Positions 42,346 to 62,259 of a stretch of 64,000 nucleotides of DNA are shown piece after piece. The stretch comes from an uncultured Mollicutes bacterium (lineage in GTDB: Bacteria > Bacillota_I > Bacilli_A > ML615J-28 > CAG-313). Position 1 is the stretch's first letter, and each line of letters starts with the position of its first letter. The stretch spans positions 73,855 through 137,854 of the forward strand of contig URLJ01000001.1 in assembly GCA_900548675.1 (NCBI GenBank), written 5' to 3'. Below the pieces are notes generated by a model that had not been told where the DNA came from, did not search any database, and was given only the letters and a program-made list of their open reading frames with translations. Made by a program: the position numbers and the translations under genes.

Positions 42346-43364
42346 TAATCATCCACCTCGAATTCTTCATTTAATTCATCTGCTAATTCATCATCAATTG
42401 TCACACCATTATATTTCTCATCTTCAAAATTATCATCTTCTTCAATTCTATTCATTTGTTGAATTTGTTCTAACTTATTATTAAGCTCTTCCGCAATGTT
42501 GGTTTCTCCAATAACAATACGTTTTGTATATTTTTGAAGGTTTTGCATAACCTTATCAATCTCATCTCTTGGCGCCCAATCGTAAAATTTATTTTTATAA
42601 CCACGTTTTTCAAGGAACGCGCATAATTCACCAATTGATTCGAAATCTCCAACATTCTTTGCAGTTTTTGGAGTAAAATCGGCAGCTTTAGCAAGTTGGT
42701 CATATGCTCCAATAAGAGCTTTAACTTCAGTTCCAGTTTTGTTATATCCTTCTTCCTCTTTCCAAATTGCTTTCTCAATTTGATAAGATAACATACACAT
42801 TTTTCGCGCGTTATCTCGTTGAATAGCAGTTGTAATAGATTGAGTTTTATCAATTTCATTATACATATTTTCAAAATATAATAATTGTTCTTGAGTAAAA
42901 TCTCTTCCCCATTTTTCTTGCAAGTCTTTAAAATCTTCTTGACTTAAAAGTTTAATACGAGAACGAGTTTCATTATTTTGAATAATCATATCCCACTCGC
43001 GCTGAACTTCTTTCCAATTAATAGTTTCATAAATTTTACCCCAGTTTTGAGTTGCATACAACTTGAATGCACCTTGACCATTGCTATCAGCAAGTGTCAT
43101 CCAAACATTTGGGTCGAATGGTAAATCCGCATACTGACAAAACTTATCGGCTTTCTCAATATCATGACAATCTCCAAAATATTTATCTAAACACTCATTA
43201 CAAATATCAATATAACCGTCTGGAAAGAACCAAGAAGTACTGGCTAAATAACCATCTTGTCTGCGGTATTCACCACATTTACGGCAATTCTTGCCGACAA
43301 TTCGTGTTGCTTTTAAAGGTTCTACTCTATTACTATTATCACTAATCAAATCTTTAAAATCCAT
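42345..43364 (-). CDS. hypothetical protein with CxxC...CxxC zinc-ribbon (terminase small subunit candidate)
   Basis: Translationally coupled upstream of terL. Confidence 0.25.
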   Translation of the reverse strand: MDFKDLISDNSNRVEPLKATRIVGKNCRKCGEYRRQDGYLASTSWFFPDGYIDICNECLDKYFGDCHDIEKADKFCQYADLPFDPNVWMTLADSNGQGAFKLYATQNWGKIYETINWKEVQREWDMIIQNNETRSRIKLLSQEDFKDLQEKWGRDFTQEQLLYFENMYNEIDKTQSITTAIQRDNARKMCMLSYQIEKAIWKEEEGYNKTGTEVKALIGAYDQLAKAADFTPKTAKNVGDFESIGELCAFLEKRGYKNKFYDWAPRDEIDKVMQNLQKYTKRIVIGETNIAEELNNKLEQIQQMNRIEEDDNFEDEKYNGVTIDDELADELNEEFEVDD

Positions 43365-44644
43365 TATTTAGTCCCCTCCTTAGCTTTCTTTTCTTTCCTT
43401 TTCTCTCTATCACAAATCTTACATCTGGCGGCAAGGCCATCTCGTGAGTTTTGTTTCTGCGTAAAATTACGAATATCACGTAATAAGGTTTTCCCGCAAG
43501 TTGAACAAACTTTAAACTTTGATGGGTCATTTCTAGCTTCCCATGCATCTCGCGCCAACTGAGCAGTCTTTGCAATTTGGCCGCAAATCATTTTGGTATA
43601 AATTGTGCTAATATAGTTGTCACTATAATTTAAACCAAATTTTTGTTGTAATTCTTCTCTAATATATTCGTTTGTTGTTTTGTCAATTTTCCTAATTAAA
43701 ATATAACGACGAGCTTCACTTAAGTCAGCTTGGTCAATATAGTCCTCAAGTTCCCAAACTAAATACTTAAGGTCAGAATTCAGTTGCTCATAAGTTAACT
43801 GTTTAAGCTCTCCATAAAATTCTAAAAACCAATACACATGTGTCGGATTAGTAAAGTCAATATAATTCTTACTAACCTCAACCCATTCCCAACCATCAAT
43901 GCCGTTTCGTAGTTGTTCGGCAAGTTCCTCTTGCTCATTCGCATACCATGTTTCCCCAAAATGCTTACGGTAATGGTCTGCGCGCCAACTTTTATAACAC
44001 CAATCTGTGTAAAGGTCTTTTACATAACCCGTATCAGATGTATAAACAAATGGCACAGCACTACTAAAACTGAATTTTGCGCGAAGAGGTTCAACGTATG
44101 CGTCCTTAAGCGCAAATTGTTCTTGTCTAAGTTGAATTAGTAAGTGATTTTTCTTATAAAACTCAAGTCCAAGTTTTTGTTTCTCCTTAAGTTCCTTAAC
44201 TCTAGCAGCCAAAGGGTCAATAATGTCCCATAAGCCTCTCATACCAGGAATTTTAGCGTCAGGTCCGTCAGGGTTACGACTAATTGTCGGTTTAACTTTT
44301 TTGTAACAGTTGCGTTGGACAGGCTTAAACTGGGTTTCGTTTGTTAAGGGGTCTTCCAGTAGGGCGTCTAACGACTCAGCTTTCTTACGTTGGTAAGCGC
44401 TGTGAGCTTGCTCAATTTGAATTTCTTTAGTCTGGCAAAAGTTTTTGTCAGTTTTAGGGTCTTTGCCGTAAAGTATAAAGTTAGCAATTTTTTCTAAGTC
44501 AGCTTGAACAGACGGACTATCATAATTGGCTTCGTAGTAGTTGGCGGCGGAACCATTATTTTCTGAAAAAAGGTCGGAAACTTGGTTGGCACGGTCAACG
44601 TTCGAATAAAGGTTATAGTCTAAGTTTTTACTAATTAAGTCCAT
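43364..44644 (-). CDS. hypothetical protein with C-terminal zinc-ribbon; first gene of the leftward late operon
   Basis: 426 aa ending CSTCGK...CKICDREKRK. Confidence 0.25.
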   Translation of the reverse strand: MDLISKNLDYNLYSNVDRANQVSDLFSENNGSAANYYEANYDSPSVQADLEKIANFILYGKDPKTDKNFCQTKEIQIEQAHSAYQRKKAESLDALLEDPLTNETQFKPVQRNCYKKVKPTISRNPDGPDAKIPGMRGLWDIIDPLAARVKELKEKQKLGLEFYKKNHLLIQLRQEQFALKDAYVEPLRAKFSFSSAVPFVYTSDTGYVKDLYTDWCYKSWRADHYRKHFGETWYANEQEELAEQLRNGIDGWEWVEVSKNYIDFTNPTHVYWFLEFYGELKQLTYEQLNSDLKYLVWELEDYIDQADLSEARRYILIRKIDKTTNEYIREELQQKFGLNYSDNYISTIYTKMICGQIAKTAQLARDAWEARNDPSKFKVCSTCGKTLLRDIRNFTQKQNSRDGLAARCKICDREKRKEKKAKEGTK

Positions 44645-45081
44645 AGGCTGTCATATTCTCCTTTATAAATTTATATTGTGTCATAGTTGTGTCTCCTTTT
44701 AAGTTTAGTAGACAAGTAATTGTCTATAATTAAAGTATAAGGGAAAGTTGACGAAAAGTCAAGTAGGGGAGTTAGTATTAAAATAAGTGTAATTTCTGAA
44801 AAAAATTTTGGTCGGTAGGTGTAATTTTTAAAATAAAAATTAGTCAGTAGGTGTAATTTCCAGGTGACCCCGATACAATTTTGTCAAAAAGTAAAAGTCC
44901 CAAAACCCTTCCCCCAGTAGGATTTGCGGGCTCGCCTTTGCACCCCTTGTCAGAAAGACAACCGTTTGTCTGAGGTATAGCGTTTGTCAGAAAGTCAAAA
45001 AAAAGTTTGTCAAAAAAACAACTTTGTAATAATTTTGTAATATTGTAATATAAATGTAATGTAAATGTAATGTAAATGTTC

Positions 45082-45110
45082 TTGTATTTTCGACAGTTTT
45101 CGCATATAAT
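45082..45110 (+). promoter_or_regulatory. sigma-70/SigA-type promoter (TTGTAT-N17-TATAAT) preceded by TGTAAT x6 tandem repeats
   Basis: -35 at 45082-45087 and -10 at 45105-45110, in the divergent region. Confidence 0.4.
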
Positions 45111-45365
45111 AACATCATCAGGAGAAGGAAGGCGAAGGACTGAACCAAAAAGACAAAATATAATTATGTAAACCGTTCAGGTATTATGTAAACTATAAAT
45201 AAAATATGGCGTTTTGTCAAAAGGTCAAAAGGAGCTGGGTTTTGGTCGAAAAAGCTGGACTTCACCAGATGCAAAAAATTTAAAATTTTTTTCAAAAAAA
45301 AGCAGGAATTTTAAATTTTTTATAGAATATTATAATATAAAGATATGAAAGGAAGGAAGAAAAAA

Positions 45366-47200: not shown

Positions 47201-47313
47201 CAACTTACAAATAATTTAAAAATATTTTAATTTTTTTTGCATATTTTACTTGACATTTGGAAATAATTATAGTATAATATAATTACAAAAGGGAAAGGTA
47301 AAAGGTGGTTAAT

Positions 47314-47790
47314 ATGAAAAAAATATTTTTAGATTTAGATGGAACATTAGCAAAATTTAATGTAAGAAATGCTTTACAAAGATTTGATAAAGAAATTGGC
47401 TTTTTTGCAAAACTTGGAGCATATAAAGGAATTGAAACAATAAACGAATTAGCAAAAAATGGAAATGTATATATAATTTCAGCAAGTCCAAACACACAAG
47501 CAGATTTTGACAAAATAGTTTGGATAGAAAAATATTTAAACAATATACCAAAAGCAAATAGGCTAATTTGTAGAGTTGGAGAAAACAAAGCAGAATATTT
47601 AAAAACAAAAGGAATACAAATTGACAAAAATTGTTATTTGTTAGATGATTACACAAAAAACTTAACAGAATGGGAAACAGTTGGAGGAGTAGGCATTAAA
47701 AGAATTACAAAATGTGCTGATAATTCAACAAAAAAATGGTTAGGTTTAGAATTAAAAGATTTATGTAAACTAAGCGAAGTTTTGGCTTAG
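47314..47790 (+). CDS. HAD-superfamily 5'(3')-deoxyribonucleotidase-like protein (paralog 1)
   Basis: HAD motif I DLDGTL at the N-terminus. Later DD and K motifs. Paralogous to the 60875-61378 product. Confidence 0.5.
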   Translation: MKKIFLDLDGTLAKFNVRNALQRFDKEIGFFAKLGAYKGIETINELAKNGNVYIISASPNTQADFDKIVWIEKYLNNIPKANRLICRVGENKAEYLKTKGIQIDKNCYLLDDYTKNLTEWETVGGVGIKRITKCADNSTKKWLGLELKDLCKLSEVLA

Positions 47791-50627: not shown

Positions 50628-50689
50628 CAACTTTACATAATGCCGCACCAAACATTTGTTTGTCAAATTTCAACTCTTTATTGCCGGCA

Positions 50690-50835
50690 CGCTCGCAGCC
50701 TACTGTCAAATTTCTACCACCCTCGCCGCCTCCTAAGGAGCTGCAAAGGAGCTGGGAGCTGCGTTGTCAAATTTTCGCCAGGAGCTGCGTTCAACCTCCC
50801 AGGTTTACATAATATGTTTACAGGAGCTGCAAAGC
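50690..50835 (+). repeat. GC-rich GGAGCTGC repeat island with TGTCAAATTT x3
   Basis: (A/C)AGGAGCTGC occurs 5 times and TGTCAAATTT(C) 3 times. The track ORF 50640-50852 is judged a spurious product of these repeats. Confidence 0.5.
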
Positions 50836-50906: not shown

Positions 50907-51212
50907 ATGGGTAATAGAGATAGAATAATTAGATGGGACGACGAAAACAATGCACACAGATATTTTGTTAATGGCAGATTAGTAGGATGTGGATATGACT
51001 TTTTAGAAGTATTCGAGAAAGCTGCACCATTCTTACACATTGGCAGAGAAATAGTAACTCGTCAAGTTTGTCTTTGTGATATTGACAGCGACTTATCAGA
51101 TACAAAAACAGGTATGATAGTAGATTTCTTAAACGAAGCTAAAAGATTAACAGAATTTCAAGAAAAAGCATTATACGAATTTGACTTCACATCTTTGTTA
51201 GAATTGATATAA
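50907..51212 (+). CDS. hypothetical protein (101 aa)
   Basis: RBS AAAGGGTTGA. Promoter at 50845-50875. Confidence 0.4.
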   Translation: MGNRDRIIRWDDENNAHRYFVNGRLVGCGYDFLEVFEKAAPFLHIGREIVTRQVCLCDIDSDLSDTKTGMIVDFLNEAKRLTEFQEKALYEFDFTSLLELI

Positions 51213-52382: not shown

Positions 52383-52550
52383 TTCGAGGATAACTAACTG
52401 GTCTCACCTCTTTAAAAATGAGAACTCTGCTGCGGAGCGCGTACCATCGCAGGGACAAATAAATTAGGCGGAGCAATGCCCTAAATGCTCTGAACAAATA
52501 TGGGCACTTATATAGCGGGGTGGAGCAGTTGGCAGCTCGCCAGGCTCATA

Positions 52551-53111
52551 GAAAATTGTGGCTCCATGTAGAAATACATAGATGAACTGTGGATGAATTC
52601 AGAGGAGGCTAAGTCTTTTGGAAAAGAAAATTATAGGTTATGATGATGTATATACAATAGATACTAATGGTATTGTATATAGAAATGGTAAACCAATGTC
52701 CCCAAGGGATAATGGTATAGGTTATCAGCAAATAGGATTGCGTTTAAATCGCAGACGATACAATGTTTATATTCACAGATTGGTTTGGGAAACTTTTAAA
52801 GGAGATATACCAAATGGATATGAGATTAACCATATAGACCATAATAAACATAATAATAACTTAGATAATTTAGAGTTAGTATCTCACTCTACCAATTTAA
52901 AAAAATCAGTAGAAAGATATGGATACTATGGTTCTATGAATAGACCAAAAGATATGCGAACTTTGAGCCAAGCCGAAGATACATCTTCGGAAGGTGCAGA
53001 GACTACTGGAGAGGTATAGTCCTCTTAATAACCAGTTTAAGTATCCACTACCTAAGTCGTAAGATATGGTAAAGACATAGTCCACTCTATAATGAAAATT
53101 ATAGGTAAGTA
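52551..53111 (+). mobile_element. group-I-like intron carrying an HNH homing endonuclease ORF
   Basis: R-like TTCAGAGGAGGCTAAGTC (52598-52615) and S-like AAAGACATAGTCC (53071-53083) could pair to form P7 (GGCTA/TAGTC). The ORF lies between them, and its RBS GAGGAGG (52602-52608) is embedded in the R element. Confidence 0.45.
52618..53019 (+). CDS. intron-encoded HNH homing endonuclease (TTG start)
   Basis: Layout typical of phage HNH homing endonucleases (HNH_3/NUMOD-like): conserved YIHRLVW, then EINHIDHNKHNNNLDNLELVSHSTN. RBS 9 nt upstream of the TTG start. Confidence 0.55.
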   Translation: MEKKIIGYDDVYTIDTNGIVYRNGKPMSPRDNGIGYQQIGLRLNRRRYNVYIHRLVWETFKGDIPNGYEINHIDHNKHNNNLDNLELVSHSTNLKKSVERYGYYGSMNRPKDMRTLSQAEDTSSEGAETTGEV

Positions 53112-53177
53112 AACCCGAAGGTCGTAGGTTCAAATCCTACTCCCGCAACCAATAGAAGATCATAGAGGTTGGTAAAA

Positions 53178-54040: not shown

Positions 54041-54366
54041 AAGGTTTTTATTCTTCACAATATAAAAGGGGTTGCTTGTGGTTGCCCCAACCAAAAACAT
54101 AAGTGGTGGTAGGTTTGCTCGTTAGGGGCTGCGAGGGTAAATAAAGAACAGCAGAACTGGTTGCATAATACGAGTGGCAAGGCAAGAGCCTTGTCTTTTT
54201 TTTATTTTTTAATTTTAGACTTGACAAACGGTACTTGCATATGATAAAAAAACTTTTTTATTTTTTTTTGCAAAAAAGACTTGACGAGATCCCTTAAAAT
54301 GAATTATAATTATTATAATGGGAGTGATATATATAAAAAAAAAGAAAAATTTACGGAGATGATATT

Positions 54367-54858
54367 ATGTGGAAATCGTATGATGATATATATGAGATAA
54401 GCACTGGTGGTAAGATAAGAAATAAGAAAAGTCCTGATAAGATATTAAAGACATATGTTAATAATTGTGGATATGAGAAATTCAAGGGCCACAATGTACA
54501 TCAGTATGTACATAGAATGGTAGCGGAGACATTCATACCTAATCCATCTGGTAAAGAACAAGTGAACCATAAAAATGGGGATAAGCTGGATAACAGGGCA
54601 GAAAATCTTGAATGGGTAACTCGTAGTGAGAACGTATCTCACGCTTATAAGTGCCTAGGAAGAAAACGTAGTTACTGTGGTTCAAAAGGACATAATGCTA
54701 AAAAGGTATATCAGTATTCATTAGAAGGTCAGCTCCTTACTACCTATAATTCGGTGGGTGCAGCTGCAGAAGCTGTCGGAGGTGCAAGTCCTAACATCAG
54801 CAGATGTTGCAATGGGCATATTAAAACATACAAAAACTTTGTATGGAAAAATGAATAA
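54367..54858 (+). CDS. HNH homing endonuclease (free-standing)
   Basis: YVHRMVAETF and NHKNGDKLDNRAENLEWVTRSEN follow the same pattern as the intron-encoded HNH. Own promoter TTGACG...TATAAT at about 54287-54320. Confidence 0.5.
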   Translation: MWKSYDDIYEISTGGKIRNKKSPDKILKTYVNNCGYEKFKGHNVHQYVHRMVAETFIPNPSGKEQVNHKNGDKLDNRAENLEWVTRSENVSHAYKCLGRKRSYCGSKGHNAKKVYQYSLEGQLLTTYNSVGAAAEAVGGASPNISRCCNGHIKTYKNFVWKNE

Positions 54859-54913
54859 AAATACTTGACTTGTCCTTCCTTAAAGATTTATGATATAATG
54901 GGAGAGTATTATT

Positions 54914-54927
54914 AAAAAAAAAAAAAA
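54914..54927 (+). repeat. A14 homopolymer at the 5' end of an ORF-less transcript
   Basis: 14 consecutive A immediately after TATAATGGGAGAG. Confidence 0.7.
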
Positions 54928-55345
54928 TAGATCCCAGCTCCCTTAGCCTGATCCAGCTCCAAATCCCAGCTCCCACCTAAGGGGTTAGCTATGAGGGCGC
55001 AGCTCCAGATTGCTACCAGGGGATAGGTGGCAATGAATTATTTCCTGGGAAATATTTGCTAGCAAAAAATGGGTAGACTCCCCCCTCCCCTTCTTCTGGC
55101 AGTTAGATCTCATTACACGGCTCGGGTCTAACTATCGCCCACATAATTAATTTTTCTTTTCCTCCTTTCTTTATAATATAATTATACATCTTTCAGCTCC
55201 CAATAGTCAAGTATTTTTTGAAAAATTTTAGCAGCTCCCATTGCCCCCCACCTTCCAGCTCCCATAGCGCAGCTCCGGTAGGTAAAGCGCAGCTCCCACC
55301 CAGCTCCCAATAGGTGGCAATGCCAGCTCCCTGCTACCAAATTAT
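54928..55345 (+). repeat. CCAGCTCC(C) / ATAGGTGGCAA repeat island (the minus strand reads GGGAGCTGG)
   Basis: At least 10 copies of CAGCTCC and 3 copies of ATAGGTGGCAA in two blocks (54928-55010 and 55193-55345). Promoter-driven with no credible ORF; the track ORF 55182-55433 (-) is judged a spurious product of these repeats. Confidence 0.5.
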
Positions 55346-55740: not shown

Positions 55741-55769
55741 TTGACTTTTAAATCTGAATTTGATATAAT
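55741..55769 (+). promoter_or_regulatory. consensus promoter TTGACT-N17-TATAAT
   Basis: -35 at 55741-55746 and -10 at 55764-55769. Confidence 0.55.
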
Positions 55770-55833
55770 ATATATGTAAATAAAAAAAGAAAGGGCATTA
55801 ACAAATTAGTCGGTTAATGTAATGGTGATTAAA

Positions 55834-56079
55834 ATGGCTAAAACAAAAGAATTATTTAATGTTAGAGGAGTAAACTTAACTGCTCACGAAAAAAATGTTT
55901 ACGACAAAGTAAAGGAATTAGGCACTGTTGACTACAACCAAGTAGCAACTGCTTGTAATGTATCTACTAAGTCTGCTATTGCAACATTAGCAAGATTAGA
56001 AAAAACTCACGGTTTATTAAGAAAAAATGAACCAGTAAAAGTAACTACTTATGAAGTTGCTGATGTAGAGGGCGAATAG
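55834..56079 (+). CDS. small winged-helix-like protein, family W paralog 2
   Basis: MAKTKELFNVRGVNLTAHEKNVYDKV...STKSAIATLARLEKTHGLLRKNEPVKVTTYEV. Confidence 0.45.
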   Translation: MAKTKELFNVRGVNLTAHEKNVYDKVKELGTVDYNQVATACNVSTKSAIATLARLEKTHGLLRKNEPVKVTTYEVADVEGE

Positions 56080-56092
56080 TCCTCTTTTTTTA
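56063..56092 (+). terminator. intrinsic terminator
   Basis: AGAGG-gcgaatagt-CCTCT followed by T7. Confidence 0.5.
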
Positions 56093-56104
56093 TTTACTGT
56101 AAAG

Positions 56105-56118
56105 CGAACAAATGTTTG
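56105..56118. promoter_or_regulatory. LexA Cheo-box-like site CGAACAAATGTTTG
   Basis: GAAC-N4-GTTT, 8 nt upstream of a TTGACA. Confidence 0.4.
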
Positions 56119-56207
56119 TCAAATACTTGACAAAAAATTTTTTTATTTTTTTTATTAAAAATACTTGACTTTGTGGGGGAAAGTGTGATATAATTAAAGG
56201 GGAAGTA

Positions 56208-56227
56208 TTTTTTTTTTTTTTTTTTTT
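56208..56227 (+). repeat. T20 homopolymer
   Basis: 20 consecutive T directly downstream of promoter 56170-56198, at the 5' end of an ORF-less GC-rich transcript. Confidence 0.7.
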
Positions 56228-56271
56228 AGTAGCTTCGCAGCTGCCACAGCAGCAGCTCAGCTCCCAGCTCC

Positions 56272-56291
56272 GACACACCCGGGTGCGTTGT
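56272..56291 (+). repeat. conserved 21-nt motif copy 1 (GACACACCCGGGTGCGTTGT)
   Basis: Member of the 7-copy family with consensus TGATACGCCCGGNTGAGTTGTA. Confidence 0.5.
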
Positions 56292-56352
56292 TGCCCCCCG
56301 TTAGGGGGTAAGGGGCTAGGTGGTTGCCCCTGGGTTGGGTTAACCCAAGATC

Positions 56353-56374
56353 TGATACGCCCGGTTGAGTTGTA
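56353..56374 (+). repeat. conserved 21-nt motif copy 2 (TGATACGCCCGGTTGAGTTGTA), flanked by AGATCT and preceded by the GGGTTAACCC palindrome
   Basis: Direct sequence match. Confidence 0.55.
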
Positions 56375-56403
56375 AGATCTTTTTGATCCGGGAGAGGATC
56401 TCA

Positions 56404-56425
56404 CGATACGCCCGGATGAGTTGTC
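56404..56425 (+). repeat. conserved 21-nt motif copy 3 (CGATACGCCCGGATGAGTTGTC)
   Basis: Direct sequence match. Confidence 0.55.
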
Positions 56426-56535
56426 TTTCATTATTATAATATAAAAAAACTTGAAAAACTTTTATAAAAATGCTTGACTTCTTTTTCTTTATTTGGTATA
56501 ATTAAGATGTAATAAAGAAAGGAAAGGTGTTAAAA

Positions 56536-56727
56536 ATGACTGAAACACAAGAATTGATTTTAAATAAGTTAGGGGAATTATGTAGAATTTATCCACAACA
56601 AAGATTAGGACAAATAATCTATAATTATATTTTAAGGTATTGTCCTAATAACGATTGTTTCTTTATAGAAGATACTAAACTTTTAGAATTATTAGAAACA
56701 ATTACAAAAGAAATTGAAGAAAAGTAA
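56536..56727 (+). CDS. hypothetical small protein (63 aa)
   Basis: RBS AGGAAAGGTG before ATG 56536. Promoter at 56473-56503. Confidence 0.4.
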   Translation: MTETQELILNKLGELCRIYPQQRLGQIIYNYILRYCPNNDCFFIEDTKLLELLETITKEIEEK

Positions 56728-56797
56728 AAAAAATACTTGACTTTAATTTCTACCTATGATATAATTAAGATGTAATAAAGAAAGGAAAGTGATAAAA

Positions 56798-56920
56798 ATG
56801 GCAATGACACCTGCAAAAAGACATCAAATAAGAGCAAAGCAAGAGGCAATGCAAAAAGCAAGAAAAGAGGAAAGACTTGGACTTGCTAAAAAAACAGCAA
56901 AGAAAAAGGGAAGAAAATAA
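56798..56920 (+). CDS. small basic protein (40 aa, Lys/Arg-rich)
   Basis: RBS AAAGGAAAGTG before ATG. Own promoter. Followed by the hairpin GGGAAGAAA-ataa-TTTCTTCCC. Confidence 0.35.
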   Translation: MAMTPAKRHQIRAKQEAMQKARKEERLGLAKKTAKKKGRK

Positions 56921-56964
56921 TTTCTTCCCCCCTCAAAAAAAATTAAAAAAAGTTAAAAAAGGTA

Positions 56965-56993
56965 TTGACATTTGACCTAATAAATGTTATAAT
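56965..56993 (+). promoter_or_regulatory. consensus promoter TTGACA-N17-TATAAT
   Basis: -35 at 56965-56970 and -10 at 56988-56993. Confidence 0.55.
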
Positions 56994-57045
56994 TAATATG
57001 TAAATGAGAGATAGCCACTCTCAAAAAGAAAGGAAAGTGATAAAA

Positions 57046-57291
57046 ATGGCAAAAACTAAAGAAACTTTTAATGTAAGAGGTGTAGAACTAACTGCACACG
57101 AAAAAAATGTTTATGAAAAGGTTGTAGAACTTGGAAAAGTTGACTATAATCAAATTGCTACAAGTTGTAATGTAAGTCCTAAAAGTGCGATAGCAACACT
57201 TGCTAGACTTGAAAAAACACACGGACTTCTAAAGAAAAATGAACCTGTAAAGGTTACAACTTACGAAATCGCCGAAGATATAGAGGACTAG
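57046..57291 (+). CDS. small winged-helix-like protein, family W paralog 3
   Basis: MAKTKETFNVRGVELTAHEKNVYEKV...SPKSAIATLARLEKTHGLLKKNEPVKVTTYEI. Confidence 0.45.
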   Translation: MAKTKETFNVRGVELTAHEKNVYEKVVELGKVDYNQIATSCNVSPKSAIATLARLEKTHGLLKKNEPVKVTTYEIAEDIED

Positions 57292-57308
57292 AAACCTCTA
57301 TATTTTTT
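57270..57308 (+). terminator. intrinsic terminator
   Basis: TATAGAGG-actagaaa-CCTCTATA followed by T7. Confidence 0.5.
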
Positions 57309-57320
57309 TATGTTCTAATA

Positions 57321-57334
57321 CGAACAAATGTTCG
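57321..57334. promoter_or_regulatory. LexA Cheo-box, perfect match CGAACAAATGTTCG
   Basis: Exact fit to the Gram-positive SOS box consensus CGAAC-N4-GTTCG. Confidence 0.5.
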
Positions 57335-57465
57335 CTTTTGGCCCCCCCAAAAAAAATTAAAAAAATTACAAAAAACTATTGACTTTCACTTGCATTTTTG
57401 CTATAATTATGTTAGAGGTGGAGGAGAGCCCCTTATAAAAAAGATCTTCCTTTAGATCATCTGAT

Positions 57466-57487
57466 GATACGCCCGGATCAGTTGTAT
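57466..57487 (+). repeat. conserved 21-nt motif copy 4 (TGATACGCCCGGATCAGTTGTA)
   Basis: Sits in an ORF-less unit behind promoter 57383-57412, preceded by the AGATCT...AGATC inverted repeat. Confidence 0.55.
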
Positions 57488-57682
57488 GGGTTGGGATGCT
57501 CCCAAAAAAATTAAAAAAAATATAAAAAAAGTATTGACTTTTGATTTGGTCTATGATATACTTAATATGTAATCAAGGAAAGACACCAAAGAAAAAAAAT
57601 AAAAAAAATTATAAAAAAGTGTTGACACTGATTAGAAAGTATGTTATAATAAATATGTAATTAAGAAAGGAAAGTGAATTAA

Positions 57683-58447
57683 ATGGAAACAAAAGGTTAT
57701 CCACAAAAACAAAAAAATATCAATGTTAGAAAGGTTAAAAATGTTTTAGGAATTGATACTGAAACTATAATGGACTTACAAAATGCAATGCCATTTGATA
57801 TCGGTTATGTTGTTTACAATAACAAAGAAGATAAAATCGAAAAACAAGGAACTTATCTTGTTAGAAAGTTTGTAAATAATAAATACATTATTTTATCAAG
57901 TTGGAGTGCTAACAAGTACGAAAGATATTATAAACCACTTTTAAACACTAAAACAAAAGATGTTAAAGTTGAAAGTGTAGAAAAAATAGCAAAAGAATTT
58001 GCTAAAATAATTAAAAAATATGATATCAAATATATGTTTGCACACAATGGACAATTTGATTATCAAGCACTTAAAAGATTATTTGAAGATGTTGGAGTTA
58101 AAAACCCTTTTGAAAATCTTGATATAATTGATACAATGATGTTAAGTTATAAAACTATTACAACTACAAAAGAATATGAAAACTTTTGTAAAGAAAATAA
58201 AAACATCACAAAATTACAAGATAAAAAAGTTGTTAGTCGTTTTATTACTGATAGTAATAGAGTAAGACAAACTGCCGAAAGTATCTTCGCATTTATAGAT
58301 AAAAATATTGATTTTGAAGAAAATCACACAGGACTTGAAGATATAAAAATTGAATTAGAAATCTTTAAGTATTGCAAGGGTAAAAAAGCAATTTTCCCTA
58401 TCAATACACAACCAACTTGGCGTGATTTTGCAAAATTAGAAAGTTAA
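57683..58447 (+). CDS. DEDDh 3'-5' exonuclease (DnaQ-like), paralog 2
   Basis: Exo I GIDTETI, Exo II HNGQFDY, Exo III HTGLEDI. Confidence 0.5.
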   Translation: METKGYPQKQKNINVRKVKNVLGIDTETIMDLQNAMPFDIGYVVYNNKEDKIEKQGTYLVRKFVNNKYIILSSWSANKYERYYKPLLNTKTKDVKVESVEKIAKEFAKIIKKYDIKYMFAHNGQFDYQALKRLFEDVGVKNPFENLDIIDTMMLSYKTITTTKEYENFCKENKNITKLQDKKVVSRFITDSNRVRQTAESIFAFIDKNIDFEENHTGLEDIKIELEIFKYCKGKKAIFPINTQPTWRDFAKLES

Positions 58448-58585
58448 AAAAACTTTCTTTTTTTTGTAAAAAAGTATTGACTTTATACCAAAACAATGCT
58501 ATAATTATAATGGGGGTGGATGATGATGATATATATAACAACGCCGCCTGGCGTGTCATAAACGTCCCCCTTGGGTTAACCCAAA

Positions 58586-58607
58586 TGATACACCTGGATG
58601 AGTTGTA
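58586..58607 (+). repeat. conserved 21-nt motif copy 5 (TGATACACCTGGATGAGTTGTA), preceded by the TTGGGTTAACCCAA palindrome
   Basis: Sits in an ORF-less unit behind promoter 58477-58505, whose transcript starts ATAATGGGGGTGG. Confidence 0.55.
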
Positions 58608-58745
58608 GACAAAAGCCTAGAATAAAAAAGTTAAAAAAGTTTTAAAAAACTATTGACAATGACCTAATACTATGCTATAATATATATGTAAGATAAAGAA
58701 AGATATATCTTACAAATGATTATTTAAGAAAGGAAAGTGATACAA

Positions 58746-58976
58746 ATGAATAATCAAAAAACTAAAAAAAGAGTATTAAAGAAAGGTGTTGAAAAGGTAT
58801 TCAGTACAATTGTTGCTATTTGGTTTTTTTGGATAATGACTACAATTGACACAATAGACAACCCATTTAATGAAATTAAAAGTTATTTAATCATTACTGG
58901 AATATTAACAATACTTGCCTTATTTAGTTTCATAATGCTAATGAAATACTCTAATTTATTTGAAGATGCCGACTAG
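58746..58976 (+). CDS. small membrane protein (two TM helices)
   Basis: RBS AAAGGAAAGTG. Hydrophobic segments FFWIMTTI and ITGILTILALFSFIML. Confidence 0.4.
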   Translation: MNNQKTKKRVLKKGVEKVFSTIVAIWFFWIMTTIDTIDNPFNEIKSYLIITGILTILALFSFIMLMKYSNLFEDAD

Positions 58977-59119
58977 TGCATCTTTTTTTATTATTGCATC
59001 AGGTATAAAAAAAATAAAAAAAAATTGCAAAAAAGTATTGACTTTTGTTTCACAAAATGATATAATTATAATGGGAGAGAATAATAATAATATAAAAAAA
59101 GATCTAGGGGTGGATCTGA

Positions 59120-59141
59120 TGACACGCGTGGGTGAGTTGTA
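59120..59141 (+). repeat. conserved 21-nt motif copy 6 (TGACACGCGTGGGTGAGTTGTA)
   Basis: ORF-less unit behind promoter 59036-59064. Preceded by AGATCTAGGGGTGGATCT. Confidence 0.55.
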
Positions 59142-59238
59142 AGAAAGTTAAAAAAAATTAAAAAACTTTTAAAAAAGTATTGACTTTAATCTAATAAAGT
59201 GGTATACTTAATATGTAATCAAGAAAGGAATGAAAAAA

Positions 59239-59601
59239 ATGAATTATAGAAACTTTAAAATTGAAATGGAAGAAAAGGACTTAAAGAAAACAAACTTAAT
59301 CTATAAATGGTTAATAACTATGAAAGATGGAAAAGTTGCTACTTATGTTGGAATATCAACAAGACCACTTGATGAAAGAACAAAAGAACACATAAGAGAT
59401 AAAAGAACATATTTTGATAAGTTCTTAACTGAAAATGAAAACAATATCAAAAGTATTAAAATTGAGGTTGTAAAAGAGTTAAAAAGAAACTTTAAAGATA
59501 TGAAAACACAACTTGAAAAAAGAGAAACTAAACTTATAATAAAAGATAAGTTAGAAAATGCTTTTAATCTTAATAGTAAAATTGATAAAAGATTTGCATA
59601 A
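59239..59601 (+). CDS. GIY-YIG-like endonuclease (divergent)
   Basis: LIYKWLITMKDGKVATYVGIS...R...EH fits the GIY...YIG...R...H/E spacing loosely. Confidence 0.3.
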   Translation: MNYRNFKIEMEEKDLKKTNLIYKWLITMKDGKVATYVGISTRPLDERTKEHIRDKRTYFDKFLTENENNIKSIKIEVVKELKRNFKDMKTQLEKRETKLIIKDKLENAFNLNSKIDKRFA

Positions 59602-59780
59602 AAAGTATTGACTTTTAAAAAGATATTTGATATAATAATATTGTCAATAGGAAATGAACTTAATAAAAAAAATTAAAAAAGTTAAAAAAACTATTGACAA
59701 TATCAATTATATTTGATATAATAAATATGTAAATAAGAAAAGAACTTATTTACAAGTAGCAAAGAAAGGAAAGTGATATT

Positions 59781-60026
59781 ATGGCTACAAAAAAAGAATT
59801 ATTTAATGTAAAGGGTGTTGAAATGACAGCACACGAAAAAATGGTTTTTGATAAGGTTGTTGAACTTGCAAGACCAGTAAGTTATAAGGAAATTGCAAAA
59901 GAGTGCAACATTAGTGAAAAAAGTGCTTGTGCTACACTTGCAAGATTAAATGCTACAAAGGGAGTTTTGAAGAAAAACGAACCTATCAAAGTTACAACTT
60001 ATGAAATAAATGAAGATATCGATTAA
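59781..60026 (+). CDS. small winged-helix-like protein, family W paralog 4
   Basis: MATKKELFNVKGVEMTAHEKMVFDKV...SEKSACATLARLNATKGVLKKNEPIKVTTYEI. Confidence 0.45.
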   Translation: MATKKELFNVKGVEMTAHEKMVFDKVVELARPVSYKEIAKECNISEKSACATLARLNATKGVLKKNEPIKVTTYEINEDID

Positions 60027-60040
60027 GATATCTTTTTTTT
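60008..60040 (+). terminator. intrinsic terminator
   Basis: AAGATATC-gattaa-GATATCTT followed by T9. Confidence 0.5.
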
Positions 60041-60251
60041 TAGTGCAAAAAAAAATTAAAAAAATTTGCAAAAAAGTATTGACTTTATACTTAAAGAGTG
60101 ATATAATTATAATGGGGGAGAATAATAATATATAAAAAAAACGATCTACTTTTGGATCACAAAAAAATGAAAAAACTTTAAAAAAAATATTGACTTTATA
60201 CCATTTATTTGGTATAATATATATGTAAGATAAAGAAAGGAATGATTAAAA

Positions 60252-60464
60252 ATGAAAAAGAAAAGAGTGTTAAAAAGTTGGGTTAAGGAAACATTATTAT
60301 TTATTGCTTGTGGTATTGCTTTATTTGGTTGTTTCAAGTTATTACAATTACAAGACCAACACGAATACAATAAAGCAATTGAAAGATGTGGAAGTGTTGA
60401 AAACCTAAACACACACTACACACAACAAGGCGACAAATACTACACTTGCAAGGTTGAAAAATAA
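60252..60464 (+). CDS. small secreted/membrane protein with N-terminal signal-like segment and a conserved Cys pair
   Basis: MKKKRVLKSWVKETLLFIACGIALFGC... resembles a signal peptide; a lipoprotein reading is uncertain. Confidence 0.35.
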   Translation: MKKKRVLKSWVKETLLFIACGIALFGCFKLLQLQDQHEYNKAIERCGSVENLNTHYTQQGDKYYTCKVEK

Positions 60465-60571
60465 CCTTGTAAGTGATAGAAAAAAAACTTAAAAAAGTTT
60501 TAAAAAAGTGTTGACTTTATACCAATAGTATGATATACTATATATGTAATCAAGGAAAGGAAAGTGATAAA

Positions 60572-60841
60572 ATGATTACTAGAAACCATAAAAACATTAT
60601 GAAATATGCAAACATAATGACAAACATTAAAGATATTGCAAAAGCAACTAAACAAACTGAAAGTCAAGTTGAAAGTGCAATAATCACACTTGCAAGAAAA
60701 GACTTAATGACAAAGTCAAAAGCAAAAGAACTTTTGAAAGACAAGAAGTCAGTTAAGTTCATAGACTTGCCATTTGGAAGTAGACTTGCAAAACCACTTC
60801 CAGTATCAACTGAAAAAGTAAAGACTATTTATTGCAAATAG
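60572..60841 (+). CDS. winged-helix-like protein, distant family W member (paralog 5)
   Basis: ATKQTESQVESAIITLARKDL parallels the (S/T)xKSAIATLARLEK core. Own promoter at 60512-60540. Confidence 0.35.
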   Translation: MITRNHKNIMKYANIMTNIKDIAKATKQTESQVESAIITLARKDLMTKSKAKELLKDKKSVKFIDLPFGSRLAKPLPVSTEKVKTIYCK

Positions 60842-60874
60842 TCTTTACAAAAAAAATGAAAGGAATTGATTAAA

Positions 60875-61378
60875 ATGAGAAAAGCCGATAACCTACCTAT
60901 TAAATGGGTGTTAGATATGGACGACACACTAGCACACTTTCACGAACAAAAAAACGCACTTGAAAGATTTGCTACTGAAAAAAACTTCTTTAATATTTTG
61001 AAACCTAGTAAAATGACAAAGTTTATCAAACAACTTGTTGAACGCAACGAACTTGACGCAAAAGATATTTTTATTGTTAGTGCTTCACCTAATGAACAAG
61101 CCGACAAAGATAAACTACAATGGATTGAAAGACACTTGCCTGAAATACCAAAAAGTAACATTATGTTTACAAGACTTGGAGAAAATAAAGCCGAATTGTT
61201 TATCAATAAATACCACTTATCAAAAGATGACTTCAAGTATTTTATGCTAATTGATGACTACACAAAAAACCTTATTGAGTGGAAAAACTTTGGTGGAATT
61301 GCTAAAAAGTACATCAATGAATACAACAACACAACAAAGAACTATCTTAACTACAACATCAGTACAATAGTATTATAA
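60875..61378 (+). CDS. HAD-superfamily 5'(3')-deoxyribonucleotidase-like protein (paralog 2)
   Basis: DMDDTLAHF (HAD motif I). Collinear with the 47314-47790 product (ISASPN, WIEKYL/WIERHL, GENKAE, LLDDYTKNL/LIDDYTKNL). Confidence 0.5.
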   Translation: MRKADNLPIKWVLDMDDTLAHFHEQKNALERFATEKNFFNILKPSKMTKFIKQLVERNELDAKDIFIVSASPNEQADKDKLQWIERHLPEIPKSNIMFTRLGENKAELFINKYHLSKDDFKYFMLIDDYTKNLIEWKNFGGIAKKYINEYNNTTKNYLNYNISTIVL

Positions 61379-61391
61379 ATGATAAATCAAA

Positions 61392-61417
61392 AGACTAATA
61401 ACAAAGTCTTTTTTATT
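61392..61417 (+). terminator. intrinsic terminator
   Basis: AAGACT-aataaca-AAGTCTT followed by T6. Confidence 0.5.
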
Positions 61418-61428
61418 ATAATAACTAT

Positions 61429-61500
61429 AACACAAACAACACAAACACAAACACAAAGTCAAACACAAACAACACAAAGTCAAAGACAAAGTCAAACCAA
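61429..61500 (+). repeat. CA-rich microsatellite-like tract (ACACAAAC / ACAAAGTCAA units)
   Basis: Generates the low-complexity TQTQSQ track ORF 61379-61579, judged non-coding. Confidence 0.5.
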
Positions 61501-61733
61501 AATACTTAAAACACTATCTGTACCACCTAGCATAGCACGATACGAACAAAACGGAACAAAAAGACCAATTATATTATAAAGATAAAACACGCCTAAAAAC
61601 GCCCTTAAAATGCGTCTAGTGGTGTATTAAAAAAATAGGGTTGGATCGATAGGAAATAAAAAAAGACTTTTAGAAATTAAAAAGTCTTTTGCTACAAACT
61701 TATGTTTGCTATTTCTTGCAAGTTGCCAAACAC

Positions 61734-61747
61734 CGAACAAGTGTTTG
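61734..61747. promoter_or_regulatory. LexA Cheo-box-like site CGAACAAGTGTTTG
   Basis: GAAC-N4-GTTT. Confidence 0.4.
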
Positions 61748-61790
61748 AGTCTTAGCATTCTAATCCCGAGAGTGCCAACATAAACACGAA

Positions 61791-61805
61791 CGAACAAGCG
61801 TTCAG
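61791..61805. promoter_or_regulatory. LexA Cheo-box-like site CGAACAAGCGTTCAG
   Basis: GAAC-N4-GTTC with both half-sites perfect. Confidence 0.45.
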
Positions 61806-61829
61806 CTGAAGGGGGGATATGTTTAGTAA

Positions 61830-61850
61830 TGATACGCCTGGGTGCGTTGT
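61830..61850 (+). repeat. conserved 21-nt motif copy 7 (TGATACGCCTGGGTGCGTTGT)
   Basis: Direct sequence match. Confidence 0.5.
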
Positions 61851-61865
61851 TATGGGTGCATGCGT

Positions 61866-61980
61866 CCTATACGAAATCACATATTCAATTTTCTGTACCT
61901 ATACGAAATCACTTACTCAATTTCTGCTAGTTCACTCACTCAATTTCTCATTCCCGAAATCACTTACCCAGTTTCTACTT
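61866..61980. repeat. four iteron-like direct repeats (~30-bp period; core ATCACTTACTCAATTTCT)
   Basis: CCTATACGAAATCACATATTCAATTTTCTG, CCTATACGAAATCACTTACTCAATTTCTG, TTCACTCACTCAATTTCTC, CGAAATCACTTACCCAGTTTCTAC. Confidence 0.6.
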
Positions 61981-62259
61981 CTCGGGCTCTCCCTTTAGTA
62001 TTTTCAGAATACTTTCCTCTCTGTGTATAGCTATGTTACATTTTTCGTAAGCGCCTTGGCTATCATTTTCACAAAAAGTAATTCCTCTTTCAAGTTCATG
62101 AACTGCTTTCGCTATTATATCTTTCAATTCTTGGTTTTGTCTAGTCAAAATTCTTACTTTTCTTTCCAAGTCTTCTATTTTTTCATTTATTTGATAACCG
62201 CTAGCTACATCTCCATCAGGACTTGTGACTAAACATCCAGATTCATAATCATAAAACAT
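61975..62259 (-). CDS. hypothetical protein with coiled-coil segment
   Basis: 94-aa ORF. Last gene of the leftward operon. Confidence 0.35.
   Translation of the reverse strand: MFYDYESGCLVTSPDGDVASGYQINEKIEDLERKVRILTRQNQELKDIIAKAVHELERGITFCENDSQGAYEKCNIAIHREESILKILKGEPEK

Follow-up and report, generated by a model that had tools for sequence, protein, structure and literature searches.

The transcription factor WhiA, conserved across Gram-positive bacteria and Mollicutes, has a C-terminal helix-turn-helix and an inactive LAGLIDADG-like domain. Its site is bipartite: the HTH domain binds an 8-bp core, GAYACRCY, and after a gap of 7 bp the degenerate LAGLIDADG homing-endonuclease domain reads an auxiliary GTTGT; binding to core and auxiliary has been established by EMSA, MST, FRET and reporter experiments (PMC11701221). 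The Mollicutes sites at the rpsJ (S10) operon lie downstream of the transcription start, at +22 to +40; Mycoplasma WhiA represses at low ATP and is relieved at high ATP, and in M. gallisepticum an intergenic site 1 kb downstream of the promoter had only a weak effect (PMC11701221). Going by published abstracts, B. subtilis WhiA is not known to act as a classical regulator. The WhiA proteins of Streptomyces and Mycobacterium have an asymmetric GACAC core and a sigma-region-4-like C-terminal domain, and Streptomyces WhiA uses sites on either strand at a variable distance from the -35 (PMC3781837, PMC10243135).

The window, the 64-kb stretch of DNA from an uncultivated phage analysed here, contains a short repeated motif in its early region, and we consider it probable (roughly 0.78), from sequence comparison, that the copies represent eight WhiA-type DNA operators. 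Seven copies lie on the plus strand, with GAYAC starts at 56272, 56354, 56405, 57466, 58587, 59121 and 61831, at most 1 nt from the positions given in an earlier sequence-only reading of this DNA. The 22-mer proposed there occurs six times at up to three mismatches, against none expected (100 shuffles), and the degenerate 20-mer GAYACRCSYGGNTSMGTTGT matches 7/7 plus-strand copies exactly, against 0.06 expected. An eighth, inverted copy, two mismatches from the degenerate 20-mer, had escaped that reading. The consensus is (T/C)GAYACRCC-YGGNTGM-GTTGT, and conservation is confined to positions -1 to +20, with flanks that carry no information, as befits a discrete element. The boxes are as follows.

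56272..56291, plus strand: box 1, GACACACC-CGGGTGC-GTTGT, exact 20-mer match with CAGCTCC repeats immediately 5'; 31.4 bits
56354..56373, plus strand: box 2, GATACGCC-CGGTTGA-GTTGT, between AGATCT...AGATCT; 19.9 bits
56405..56424, plus strand: box 3, GATACGCC-CGGATGA-GTTGT, ending 49 nt 5' of the -35 of the promoter at 56474; 31.7 bits
57466..57485, plus strand: box 4, GATACGCC-CGGATCA-GTTGT, ending 48 nt 5' of the -35 at 57534; 22.2 bits
58538..58557, minus strand: box 5, GACACGCC-AGGCGGC-GTTGT (minus-strand sequence); 30.7 bits
58587..58606, plus strand: box 6, GATACACC-TGGATGA-GTTGT, ending 46 nt 5' of the -35 at 58653; 20.5 bits
59121..59140, plus strand: box 7, GACACGCG-TGGGTGA-GTTGT, ending 39 nt 5' of the -35 at 59180; 18.6 bits
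61831..61850, plus strand: box 8, GATACGCC-TGGGTGC-GTTGT, non-coding, 3' of the last early gene; 26.0 bits

The bit scores come from a weight matrix built solely from 49 published rpsJ-operon sites of Firmicutes and Mollicutes and scanned over both strands of the window. Its top eight matches are the eight boxes, at 18.6-31.7 bits, followed by a match of 14.1 bits; the best match per shuffle averaged 13.0 bits and reached a maximum of 22.9 (n=50). The M. gallisepticum oligonucleotide TGATACACC-AAAAACC-GTTGT has an 8+7+5 layout identical to that of the phage motif, and the ACRCC(C/T/A)GG continuation of the phage boxes is shared by Firmicute sites (Table S3, PMC11701221). Box 7 is similar to the published Lachnospiraceae rpsJ site GATACGCGTGGGAGTGTGTA, and for the spacer, sequence comparison suggests an extended consensus of Clostridia type, YGGNTGM. 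The rpsJ sites of Mollicutes and Firmicutes thus share with the phage boxes the GAYACRCY core, the 7-bp spacer, GTTGT, the T or C before the core, the sense orientation 3' of a strong promoter and, in Firmicutes, the CC(C/T/A)GG continuation (PMC11701221). They differ in being single in each operon, whereas eight boxes occupy 5.6 kb of a phage genome, and in directly preceding the regulated genes, whereas the phage boxes precede another promoter. The actinobacterial use of either strand fits the mixed orientations in the phage clade and at the host loci described below, although actinobacterial WhiA has a partner, WhiB, that is absent from Firmicutes, a motif without the GTTGT half and a role in activating division genes.

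Two other systems bear comparison. The SPBRE operators of the Bacillus phage SPbeta, bound by the phage master repressor MrpR/YopR (PMC10516654), are likewise a short repeat that recurs in some ten early regions, intergenic or promoter, of a large SPbeta-like siphovirus, and the terminase and capsid genes of the window are distantly SPbeta-like. However, SPBRE has an AT-rich consensus, AAATACAAAWAATATGTATATAAT (re-derived here), that overlaps the -10 and has no similarity to the GC-rich box, and in the SPbeta genome no WhiA-type box reaches 14 bits. In the first-step-transfer DNA of phage T5, DnaA boxes lie in untranslated repeat regions and have a proposed role in injection arrest (bioRxiv 10.1101/866236). 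These too are clustered sites for a conserved host DNA-binding protein in a non-coding early region, which like that of the window phage is rich in repeats, inverted repeats and palindromes; the host protein and the sequence are different, and the window phage is not T5-like.

The boxes lie in long untranslated stretches that have a strong sigma-70-type promoter at the start and the next early promoter at the end. The promoters and associated features of these units are listed here.

56165..56194, plus strand: upstream promoter of unit 1, ORF-less, TTGACT-18-TATAAT, with boxes 1-3 at about +71, +153 and +204
56474..56502, plus strand: gene-proximal promoter 3' of box 3, driving a 66-aa ORF (56527-56727)
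57379..57407, plus strand: upstream promoter of unit 2, ORF-less, with box 4 at about +52
57534..57562, plus strand: promoter 3' of box 4, followed by a promoter at 57622 and an exonuclease-like gene (57683-58447)
58477..58505, plus strand: upstream promoter of unit 3, ORF-less, with boxes 5 and 6 at about +26 and +75
58653..58681, plus strand: gene-proximal promoter 3' of box 6, driving a small membrane-protein gene (58737-58976)
59038..59066, plus strand: upstream promoter of unit 4, ORF-less, with box 7 at about +48
59100..59117, no strand: GATC-containing short hairpin or palindrome, AGATCT-N6-GGATCT, just 5' of box 7
59180..59208, plus strand: gene-proximal promoter 3' of box 7, driving the gene 59230-59601 (weak, sub-threshold GIY-YIG match)
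60079..60160, plus strand: degenerate sister unit with the promoter type and GATC hairpin of the boxed units but no box

The four upstream promoters are near-consensus (11/12 matches). The first sense-oriented box of each unit starts 83-110 nt past the -35 hexamer, which places it at about +48 to +75 relative to the inferred start of transcription, and four boxes end 39-49 bp short of the next early promoter's -35. The downstream placement described in the sequence-only reading holds for the four units, but boxes 56354 and 56405 lie deeper in unit 1, and box 61831, which adjoins iteron-like repeats, has no strong promoter near or upstream of it. A terminator-like site was sought 3' of each copy and none was found, so transcripts from the ORF-less promoters would continue into the next promoter and gene. 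As had been claimed, the units hold no credible ORF, only ORFs of 30-60 aa that span promoters and a 113-aa minus-strand ORF across the T20 run. That T20 run is present at 56208-56227, whereas the A14 run attributed to the same interval lies outside it, at 54914-54927, in a motif-free unit; the TATAATGGGRG start is found at 58506 and 59067 but also in motif-free units at 54314, 54894 and 60108. Both GGGTTAACCC palindromes (56337, 58573) and the AGATCT/GGATC inverted repeats (56348/56375, 56385/56396, 57442/57455, 59100/59112) are where they had been reported. The GATC hairpin of unit 4 has equivalents at 56348-56380, 56385-56400 and 57442-57459, and in relatives its stem is retained while the loop varies. 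A relative, L002, has a deletion of ~108 bp within unit 1.

Genome searches returned 59 matches to the element. It is conserved, multicopy and intergenic, and present on both strands, in related AT-rich phage contigs that come from several metagenomes. Box 5 is kept in L001-L003 and L008, and in L003 and L008 another variant of the box, displaced by ~8 nt, stands in for box 8, a sign that a box may be under selection there. Of the 59 matches, 21 are Clostridia loci beside rpoB (14, with the element 18-125 nt upstream) or rpsL (7, ~157 nt upstream). All 21 share one orientation, opposite to rpoB or rpsL, with unrelated flanks, and the same 20-mer in invariably one orientation at these genes points to a host factor. 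At rpsL the element lies 47 bp upstream of the -35, compared with 39-49 bp in the phage, although relative to the nearest gene the phage boxes have the opposite orientation to these host elements. The Clostridia genomes with exact matches have a G+C content of 46-66%, against 31% in the phage, and for that reason are probably not those of its host.

The suggestion of the sequence-only reading that the motif is a protein-recognition site gains support from the match to the published WhiA site, but in place of the binders that it put forward, a homing endonuclease (here meaning an active one) or the winged-helix paralogs close by, the best candidate becomes WhiA of the phage's host, by which the eight boxes would presumably be bound. 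The homing endonuclease was a close guess, since WhiA holds a degenerate LAGLIDADG domain that reads the GTTGT half. A site for a phage-encoded protein, whether one of the five winged-helix paralogs, a WhiA-like protein encoded beyond the window or an endonuclease of homing or nicking type, is in our judgement improbable. The paralogs are indeed present (53749, 55822, 57046, 59781 and a more distant one at 60530; one exceeds the Pfam cut-off for the Fe_dep_repress winged-helix domain) and the boxes are interleaved with their genes; there are HNH genes at 52618 and 54367 besides the weak GIY-YIG match at 59230, GGATC-N4 abuts two boxes, and the window covers only 64 kb of a phage genome of ~100-130 kb. 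Yet the identical extended 20-mer stands at rpoB and rpsL in chromosomes without these phage genes, no winged-helix paralog was found within the fetched loci of the box-bearing L006, L007, L019, L023, L027 and L034, and the window proteins tested gave no match to a WhiA Pfam domain.

Even less probable is that the ORF-less promoters make RNAs of ~80-150 nt in which the motif is a conserved 3' module that works at the RNA level, for instance by pairing with its complement in host rpoB leaders. Four units do combine a strong promoter with no credible ORF, and plus-strand RNA would pair without a mismatch with the element in the host rpoB 5' leaders. The motif can also be folded into a small hairpin, the one plausible fold, with wobble-compatible variable positions (82% of hairpin cells paired, against 19-47% with the partner slid), but its covariation score equals that of shuffles and, in line with the lack of compensatory pairing noted earlier, 0/8 candidate pairs vary on both sides. 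With no terminator or defined 3' end after the motif and no Rfam family match even at E<=10, the 3' module of the sequence-only reading is left unsupported. Relatives moreover have copies on both strands, some of them, for instance in L006, L007 and L023, lacking a same-strand upstream promoter; the chromosomal copies face away from the direction of rpoB and rpsL, and the rpsL element, upstream of the promoter, lies outside that mRNA. The published DNA-binding site fully explains the sequence. It is scarcely conceivable that the motif is coding, as a micro-ORF ATG-AYA-CRC-SYG-GNT-SMG-TTG-TAR or as an Asp-Thr-Pro-Gly peptide tail (GAY-ACR-CCY-GGN with third-position variation). The variable positions 2, 5, 8, 11 and 14 have a 3-nt period and four copies have an ATG start and a TAA or TAG end, but in half of the copies the ATG or the stop is missing, the codon after the Asp-Thr-Pro-Gly frame varies between TGA and TGC, no ORF of at least 30 aa terminates at the motif in that frame, and the host copies lie in non-coding DNA, inverted with respect to the genes beside them. 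The Y/R degeneracy is already within the published core GAYACRCY (PMC11701221).

If the boxes are WhiA operators, then the published site suggests by analogy that the HTH domain would read the core GAYACRCC and the endonuclease-like domain the GTTGT 7 bp on; with both domains contacting one site, one protein would clamp about 20-34 bp. Bound host WhiA could act on the upstream promoter, at initiation or promoter escape, on how the downstream promoter fires, or on both promoters, and early-gene output would thereby track the growth or energy signal that WhiA imposes on ribosomal-protein operons. We put forward such regulatory gating, tying early transcription to host physiology, only tentatively, at a little under even odds, and the sign of WhiA regulation at the phage boxes is one that we infer. 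Counting against the operator reading are the distance of the boxes from the transcription start, greater than that of the Mollicutes sites, the weak effect of the remote M. gallisepticum site, the orientation opposite to that at the host rpoB and rpsL loci, the B. subtilis protein not known as a classical regulator, and the promoter-less position of box 61831. The main alternative, which we regard as unlikely, is that the boxes are WhiA sites that titrate the host protein rather than regulate the phage: eight high-scoring sites in each genome, multiplied by replication, would draw WhiA off its few chromosomal targets, the rpsJ, rpoB and rpsL regions and cell-division functions, and the phage would benefit from de-repressed translation and transcription machinery or disturbed division. 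In unit 1 three boxes follow one another in tandem, and boxes 5 and 6 of unit 3 stand head-to-head, 29 bp apart; this very high density, against one box per 8 kb at the host loci, would suit titration, as would the tightly packed arrays in L017, L024 and L059 and the lack of promoter association of box 61831. The ORF-less sister units bear CAGCTCC x14 arrays in place of the box, which suggests "motif-array" modules. A pure decoy, however, has no need of the narrow 39-49 bp spacing to the next -35 in four boxes, and a few dozen to a few hundred added sites may not deplete WhiA, since it has non-specific DNA binding as well and is described as coating the nucleoid (PMC11701221). As probable WhiA-type operators between early promoters, the boxes suggest that this phage exploits, or soaks up, a growth-state regulator of its host.

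The conserved element of the ORF-less early units is probably a DNA operator of the WhiA type, a reading to which we give a probability of roughly 0.8 and which rests on its match to published WhiA sites. Seven plus-strand copies of the motif had been described in the sequence-only reading, and they hold up: its 22-mer matches six times at three mismatches or fewer, against none in 100 shuffles, and the degenerate form GAYACRCSYGGNTSMGTTGT is matched exactly by all seven, where 0.06 matches would be expected. An eighth box, inverted, was recovered with the same degenerate pattern. Each box is a 20-mer consisting of a core (GAYACRCY), 7 bp and an auxiliary element (GTTGT).

WhiA-type boxes in the window (start positions, except box 5)
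56272, plus strand: box 1, unit 1 (ORF-less, promoter at 56165)
56354, plus strand: box 2, unit 1
56405, plus strand: box 3, unit 1
57466, plus strand: box 4, unit 2 (ORF-less, promoter at 57379)
58538-58557, minus strand: box 5, inverted, unit 3 (ORF-less, promoter at 58477)
58587, plus strand: box 6, unit 3
59121, plus strand: box 7, unit 4 (ORF-less, promoter at 59038)
61831, plus strand: box 8

The core is exact in seven of the eight boxes, the exception being the box at 59121 with GACACGCG; G as the last core position is also known from published Clostridium and Lachnospiraceae sites (Table S3, PMC11701221). GTTGT stands exactly 7 bp past the core in all eight. In M. gallisepticum, where WhiA is a repressor of the rpsJ operon, the HTH domain of the protein contacts the core GAYACRCY and its homing-endonuclease-like domain a downstream auxiliary GTTGT, the latter contact being loosened by ATP (PMC11701221). 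The site used in those experiments, TGATACACC-AAAAACC-GTTGT (PMC11701221), and the phage motif, GAYACRCC-YGGNTGM-GTTGT, have an identical layout of core, 7 bp and auxiliary element. Published Firmicute sites share the CC(C/T/A)GG continuation of the phage boxes (Table S3, PMC11701221), a likeness exemplified by the Lachnospiraceae site GATACGCGTGGGAGTGTGTA and the box at 59121, GACACGCGTGGGTGAGTTGTA. When both strands of the window were scanned with a weight matrix built only from 49 published Firmicutes and Mollicutes sites, the eight boxes were the top eight matches at 18.6-31.7 bits, followed by a ninth at 14.1; the best scores in 50 shuffled windows had a mean of 13.0 bits and reached 22.9 at most. 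The protein-recognition site proposed as one of two possibilities is supported, and its probable binder, predicted from the match to published sites, is WhiA. The variable motif positions show a 3-nt periodicity, and an ATG...TAA frame is present in four copies, both of which are explained by the degeneracy already described for the WhiA core. A micro-ORF or an Asp-Thr-Pro-Gly coding frame was rejected because the other copies and the host copies lack the frame.

The phage is a large, uncultivated siphovirus of 31% G+C, with a tape measure protein of 2597 aa, a terminase sharing 45% identity with its counterpart in Geobacillus virus E3, a capsid protein resembling those of SPbeta-like phages, an amidase+SH3 endolysin, ThyX (115-822) and five tRNAs. 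No close match was found among 50,697 deposited phage records; related IMG/VR contigs measure 100-131 kb, and one of them, 3300045988_165374 (101,681 bp), matches the winged-helix protein of the window with 100% identity. Its endolysin, sigma-A-type promoters and style of ribosome-binding site point to a low-G+C Gram-positive host, and whiA is widespread among such bacteria according to the literature. Strong promoters crowd the early region (45-61.4 kb, plus strand), each small gene having its own and several standing with no gene behind them. Two early genes (47305-47790 and 60866-61378) belong to the NT5C family of 5'-deoxyribonucleotidase-like proteins and, together with ThyX, suggest that the phage reshapes nucleotide pools at an early stage of infection. 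The late (structural) operon opens with a gene (43364-44644, minus strand) for a 426-aa protein whose residues 256-414 match phrog_5767, a PHROG annotated 'sigma factor' (E=1e-23); an endonuclease-VII/Lar-like match lies at the C-terminus, and Pfam gives no match. At 52502-53148 the anticodon loop of a tRNA-fMet(CAT)-like gene, which ARAGORN does not call, is interrupted by an insert of about 570 nt, within which lies an ORF for an HNH endonuclease (52618-53019). Rfam Intron_gpI matches 52853-53104 (E=7e-9) at 40.8 bits, short of the gathering score of 50.

Related phages carry the box as well. In IMG/VR, 31 stretches match the exact pattern, among them the AT-rich loci L006, L007/L035, L009, L011, L012, L015, L017-L019, L023, L024, L027 and L034 (L-numbers denote loci with the motif or kin to the window phage), with one to four intergenic boxes each, on both strands and in wholly different flanks. 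The edges of conservation are sharp, at position -1 and about +20, and close relatives keep the boxes even as the loops of hairpins and the lengths of homopolymers drift; L003 and L008 have, in place of the last box, another variant displaced by about 8 nt. The matrix of published sites also recovers boxes in related phage loci. The GC-rich IMG/VR matches (L005/L032, L014/L016/L022/L029, L028, L033) are attributed to chance, being single copies whose count is near the estimate of about seven, a figure derived from pattern degeneracy and an assumed collection size. SPbeta and the 50 kb of Phass-1 that were scanned gave no box with the matrix. A Bacilli-type box pattern (GACACRCCCGGCCRCWTTGYC) had no match in IMG/VR, so the trait belongs to this phage clade and is not general to phages. 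Three low-G+C genome-collection contigs (L054, L059 and L066) are kin of the window phage, share its NT5C-like and other early genes and have two to four boxes each; they are binned into Bacilli, 'Alphaproteobacteria' and Clostridia MAGs, and as phage contigs in MAG bins they make the taxon labels weak hints of host.

A second setting of the box is bacterial. The exact pattern occurs 59 times in 185,579 bacterial and archaeal genomes, about the chance expectation, and 21 of these matches come from loci in Clostridia (Oscillospiraceae, Lachnospiraceae and relatives) with a box in a single orientation and otherwise unrelated flanks, 18-125 nt upstream of rpoB in 14 loci and about 157 nt upstream of rpsL in seven. 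The matrix places exactly one box in each 8-kb host locus. These Clostridia genomes have a G+C content far above the 31% of the phage.

Clostridia loci with a box found by the pattern scan
rpsL-adjacent box: L039, L046, L057, L060, L068, L069, L094
rpoB-adjacent box: L040, L058, L062, L067, L072, L074, L077, L080, L081, L085, L087, L089, L095, L096

WhiA was suggested by this setting, a 20-bp element with a GACAC core standing beside transcription- and translation-machinery genes of Gram-positives. At rpoB a well-conserved sigma-A-like promoter, TTGATT-17-TATACT, has the box about 20 nt upstream of it; this promoter is directed away from rpoB and converges on the rpoB promoter (TTGACA-17-TAGAAT), about 115-140 nt upstream of the box, a layout that suggests antisense or interference control. 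Published comparative work on the WhiA box deals with the rpsJ operon only (PMC11701221), and the rpsJ regions lie outside the Clostridia loci examined here; the rpoB and rpsL matches suggest that several transcription- and translation-machinery operons of Clostridia carry putative WhiA-type boxes beyond rpsJ.

The small-RNA interpretation, also raised in the sequence-only reading, is not supported. Near-consensus sigma-70-type promoters do lie upstream at 56165, 57379, 58477 and 59038, as had been reported, and the box units lack a credible ORF, a relative having a deletion within unit 1. A terminator-like site follows none of the boxes, so transcripts of the ORF-less promoters would run into the next promoter and gene. 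The motif can fold as a small hairpin (82% of cells paired); the reported lack of compensatory pairing was borne out, with a two-sided change in none of the eight pairs of the candidate hairpin and a covariation score (0.166) equal to the shuffle mean. Whole-unit folds gave z-scores of +0.6 to -2.7. Both box orientations occur in L007, L019, L023, L027 and unit 3 of the window, some boxes in relatives have no same-strand promoter upstream, and the host box lies upstream of the promoter at the rpsL loci and in the orientation opposite to the genes at both rpoB and rpsL. An Rfam search of the window and of 55.5-62.5 kb at E<=10 gave no match at any box to known ribozymes, riboswitches or leaders, and a search of 14 bacterial and MAG-binned loci at the gathering score gave none at boxes either. 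A promoter followed by a conserved motif and no ORF need not mean a small-RNA gene, a caution that applies to annotation.

All eight boxes are intergenic, at +26 to +204 from upstream promoters. The first sense box of each unit sits at about +48 to +75 from the ORF-less promoter, unit 3 has its inverted box at +26, and the last boxes of the units end 49, 48, 46 and 39 bp 5' of the next -35 element. At rpsJ, WhiA represses initiation rather than elongation from a site at +22 to +40 relative to the start of transcription (PMC11701221), an arrangement that the sense phage boxes resemble, and the spacing from box to promoter of 39-49 bp is close to the 47 bp at Clostridia rpsL, although the orientation there is inverted. 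In Streptomyces the GACAC motif is active on either strand and with variable spacing. Given this anatomy relative to both sets of promoters, we adopt the reading in which host WhiA would use the boxes as operators in the untranslated spacers of tandem-promoter early units, and the boxes would couple early phage expression to the growth or energy state of the host. That such coupling or gating of early transcription is their purpose is a possibility that we place slightly below even odds.

The main alternative retains the predicted binding of WhiA and differs in purpose: the boxes would act as a sponge that titrates the protein. The very high density of sites, the tandem and head-to-head arrays and a sister ORF-less unit with 14 copies of another short motif instead of boxes all speak for titration, which we nevertheless consider unlikely. 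Less probably, the binder would be a WhiA-like protein that the phage itself encodes beyond the window, which takes in about half of its genome; among the window proteins tested, none shows a WhiA domain. Returning to host WhiA as the predicted binder, the broader proposal that a clade of large gut phages co-opted the WhiA operator and multiplied it in the early region, as a growth-state sensor or a sponge, is tentative and on balance doubtful.

Several other identities were considered and set aside. Likeness to T5, in the form of a pre-early region, an injection stop signal or nick sites, was considered on account of an NT5C/dmp-like gene, a tRNA cluster and strong promoters; it was rejected because both terminase and capsid are of the SPbeta type rather than the T5 type, and because T5 repeats DnaA boxes (TTWTNCACA) in pairs and the phage motif is no DnaA box. 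In SPbeta, MrpR binds an operator, SPBRE, that recurs in the early region (PMC10516654); the SPBRE consensus, re-derived from SPbeta, is AT-rich (...ATACAAAWAATATGTAT...), overlaps the -10 element and is unrelated to the box. A promoter for a phage RNA polymerase or sigma factor was rejected since the spacing from core to auxiliary element is too short for a -35/-10 pair, the 2597-aa protein is the tape measure, a YonO-like gene is missing at the head of the late operon, and the box at 61831 would fire into convergent genes. No feature supporting a CRISPR-repeat mimic, a retron or a hammerhead was noticed. The motif has what we take to be a vague likeness to helix 44 of 16S rRNA, and the idea of a mimic was dropped once the WhiA match emerged.

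The early region is rich in other repeats. Both repeat types reported there, AGATCT/GGATC inverted repeats and a pair of GGGTTAACCC palindromes, are present; of the homopolymers, the T20 run lies in unit 1 (56208-56227), and the A14 run, at 54914, belongs to a motif-less unit outside the stretch occupied by the box units. GATC is strongly avoided across the window (24 sites, about 182 expected from composition), and 21 of the 24 sites fall in early non-coding units, in clusters between 53158 and 61644, most of them paired in 4-7-bp hairpins or palindromes adjoining WhiA boxes. GGATC-N4-GAYAC occurs twice, and GATC also stands beside boxes in L006, L007, L023, L027, L034 and L054. GGAGCTG/CAGCTCC has 28 copies in the window (about 1.4 estimated by base composition), 21 of them in three non-coding clusters (50737-50823, 54730-55324 and 56253-56271), one of which is an ORF-less unit of about 500 nt with 14 copies after the promoter at 54865; it is also seen in L011, L017, L024, L012 and L004 and adjoins WhiA boxes in several relatives. 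Gene-proximal early promoters (55764-60549) have in common TATAAT-WW-ATATGTAA, with six exact copies and three more of ATATGTAA immediately 3' of a -10 element, a form resembled by the SPbeta SPBRE operator (...AATATGTATATAAT). The ORF-less promoters begin TATAATGGGRG or TATAATTATGTTAGAGG, and the difference may reflect two promoter classes under different control. Repeats of TTTGTCA(A/G)AA(A/G) and TTTACATAA, probably operators of a phage regulator, occur at 44860-45230, in the divergent early/late control region, and at 50640-50790, upstream of the gene at 50907. The non-coding stretch 61380-62000, between convergent early and minus-strand genes, contains an (ACAAAC)-like tract (61430-61500) and four copies of an iteron-like repeat, each about 32 bp long (CGAAATCACTTACTCAATTTCT), that begin directly after box 8, and could be a replication origin or genome-end region.

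Few regulators of Gram-positive bacteria are as conserved as WhiA, which even the minimal genomes of Mollicutes keep. What it does physiologically in bacteria other than Actinobacteria is, to our knowledge, poorly defined, with no clear regulon in B. subtilis, and we know of no experimentally supported target in Mollicutes other than the rpsJ operon. An incomplete literature search found no paper on WhiA boxes in phage genomes; what it returned on phages and whiA concerned only a prophage attachment site at whiA or a passing mention. The WhiA-type element is of a kind already known, and its phage setting is, so far as that search shows, unreported. The 21 Clostridia genomes with a box at rpoB or rpsL widen the candidate set of WhiA-type boxes past rpsJ. 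A phage clade that retains many strong boxes under selection would naturally report WhiA activity, and it would be the first indication we have found of phages exploiting this protein. If the boxes form a sponge, WhiA would be stripped from host ribosomal-protein, RNA-polymerase and division genes; whether as sensor or as sponge, they would make WhiA a host factor targeted by phages.
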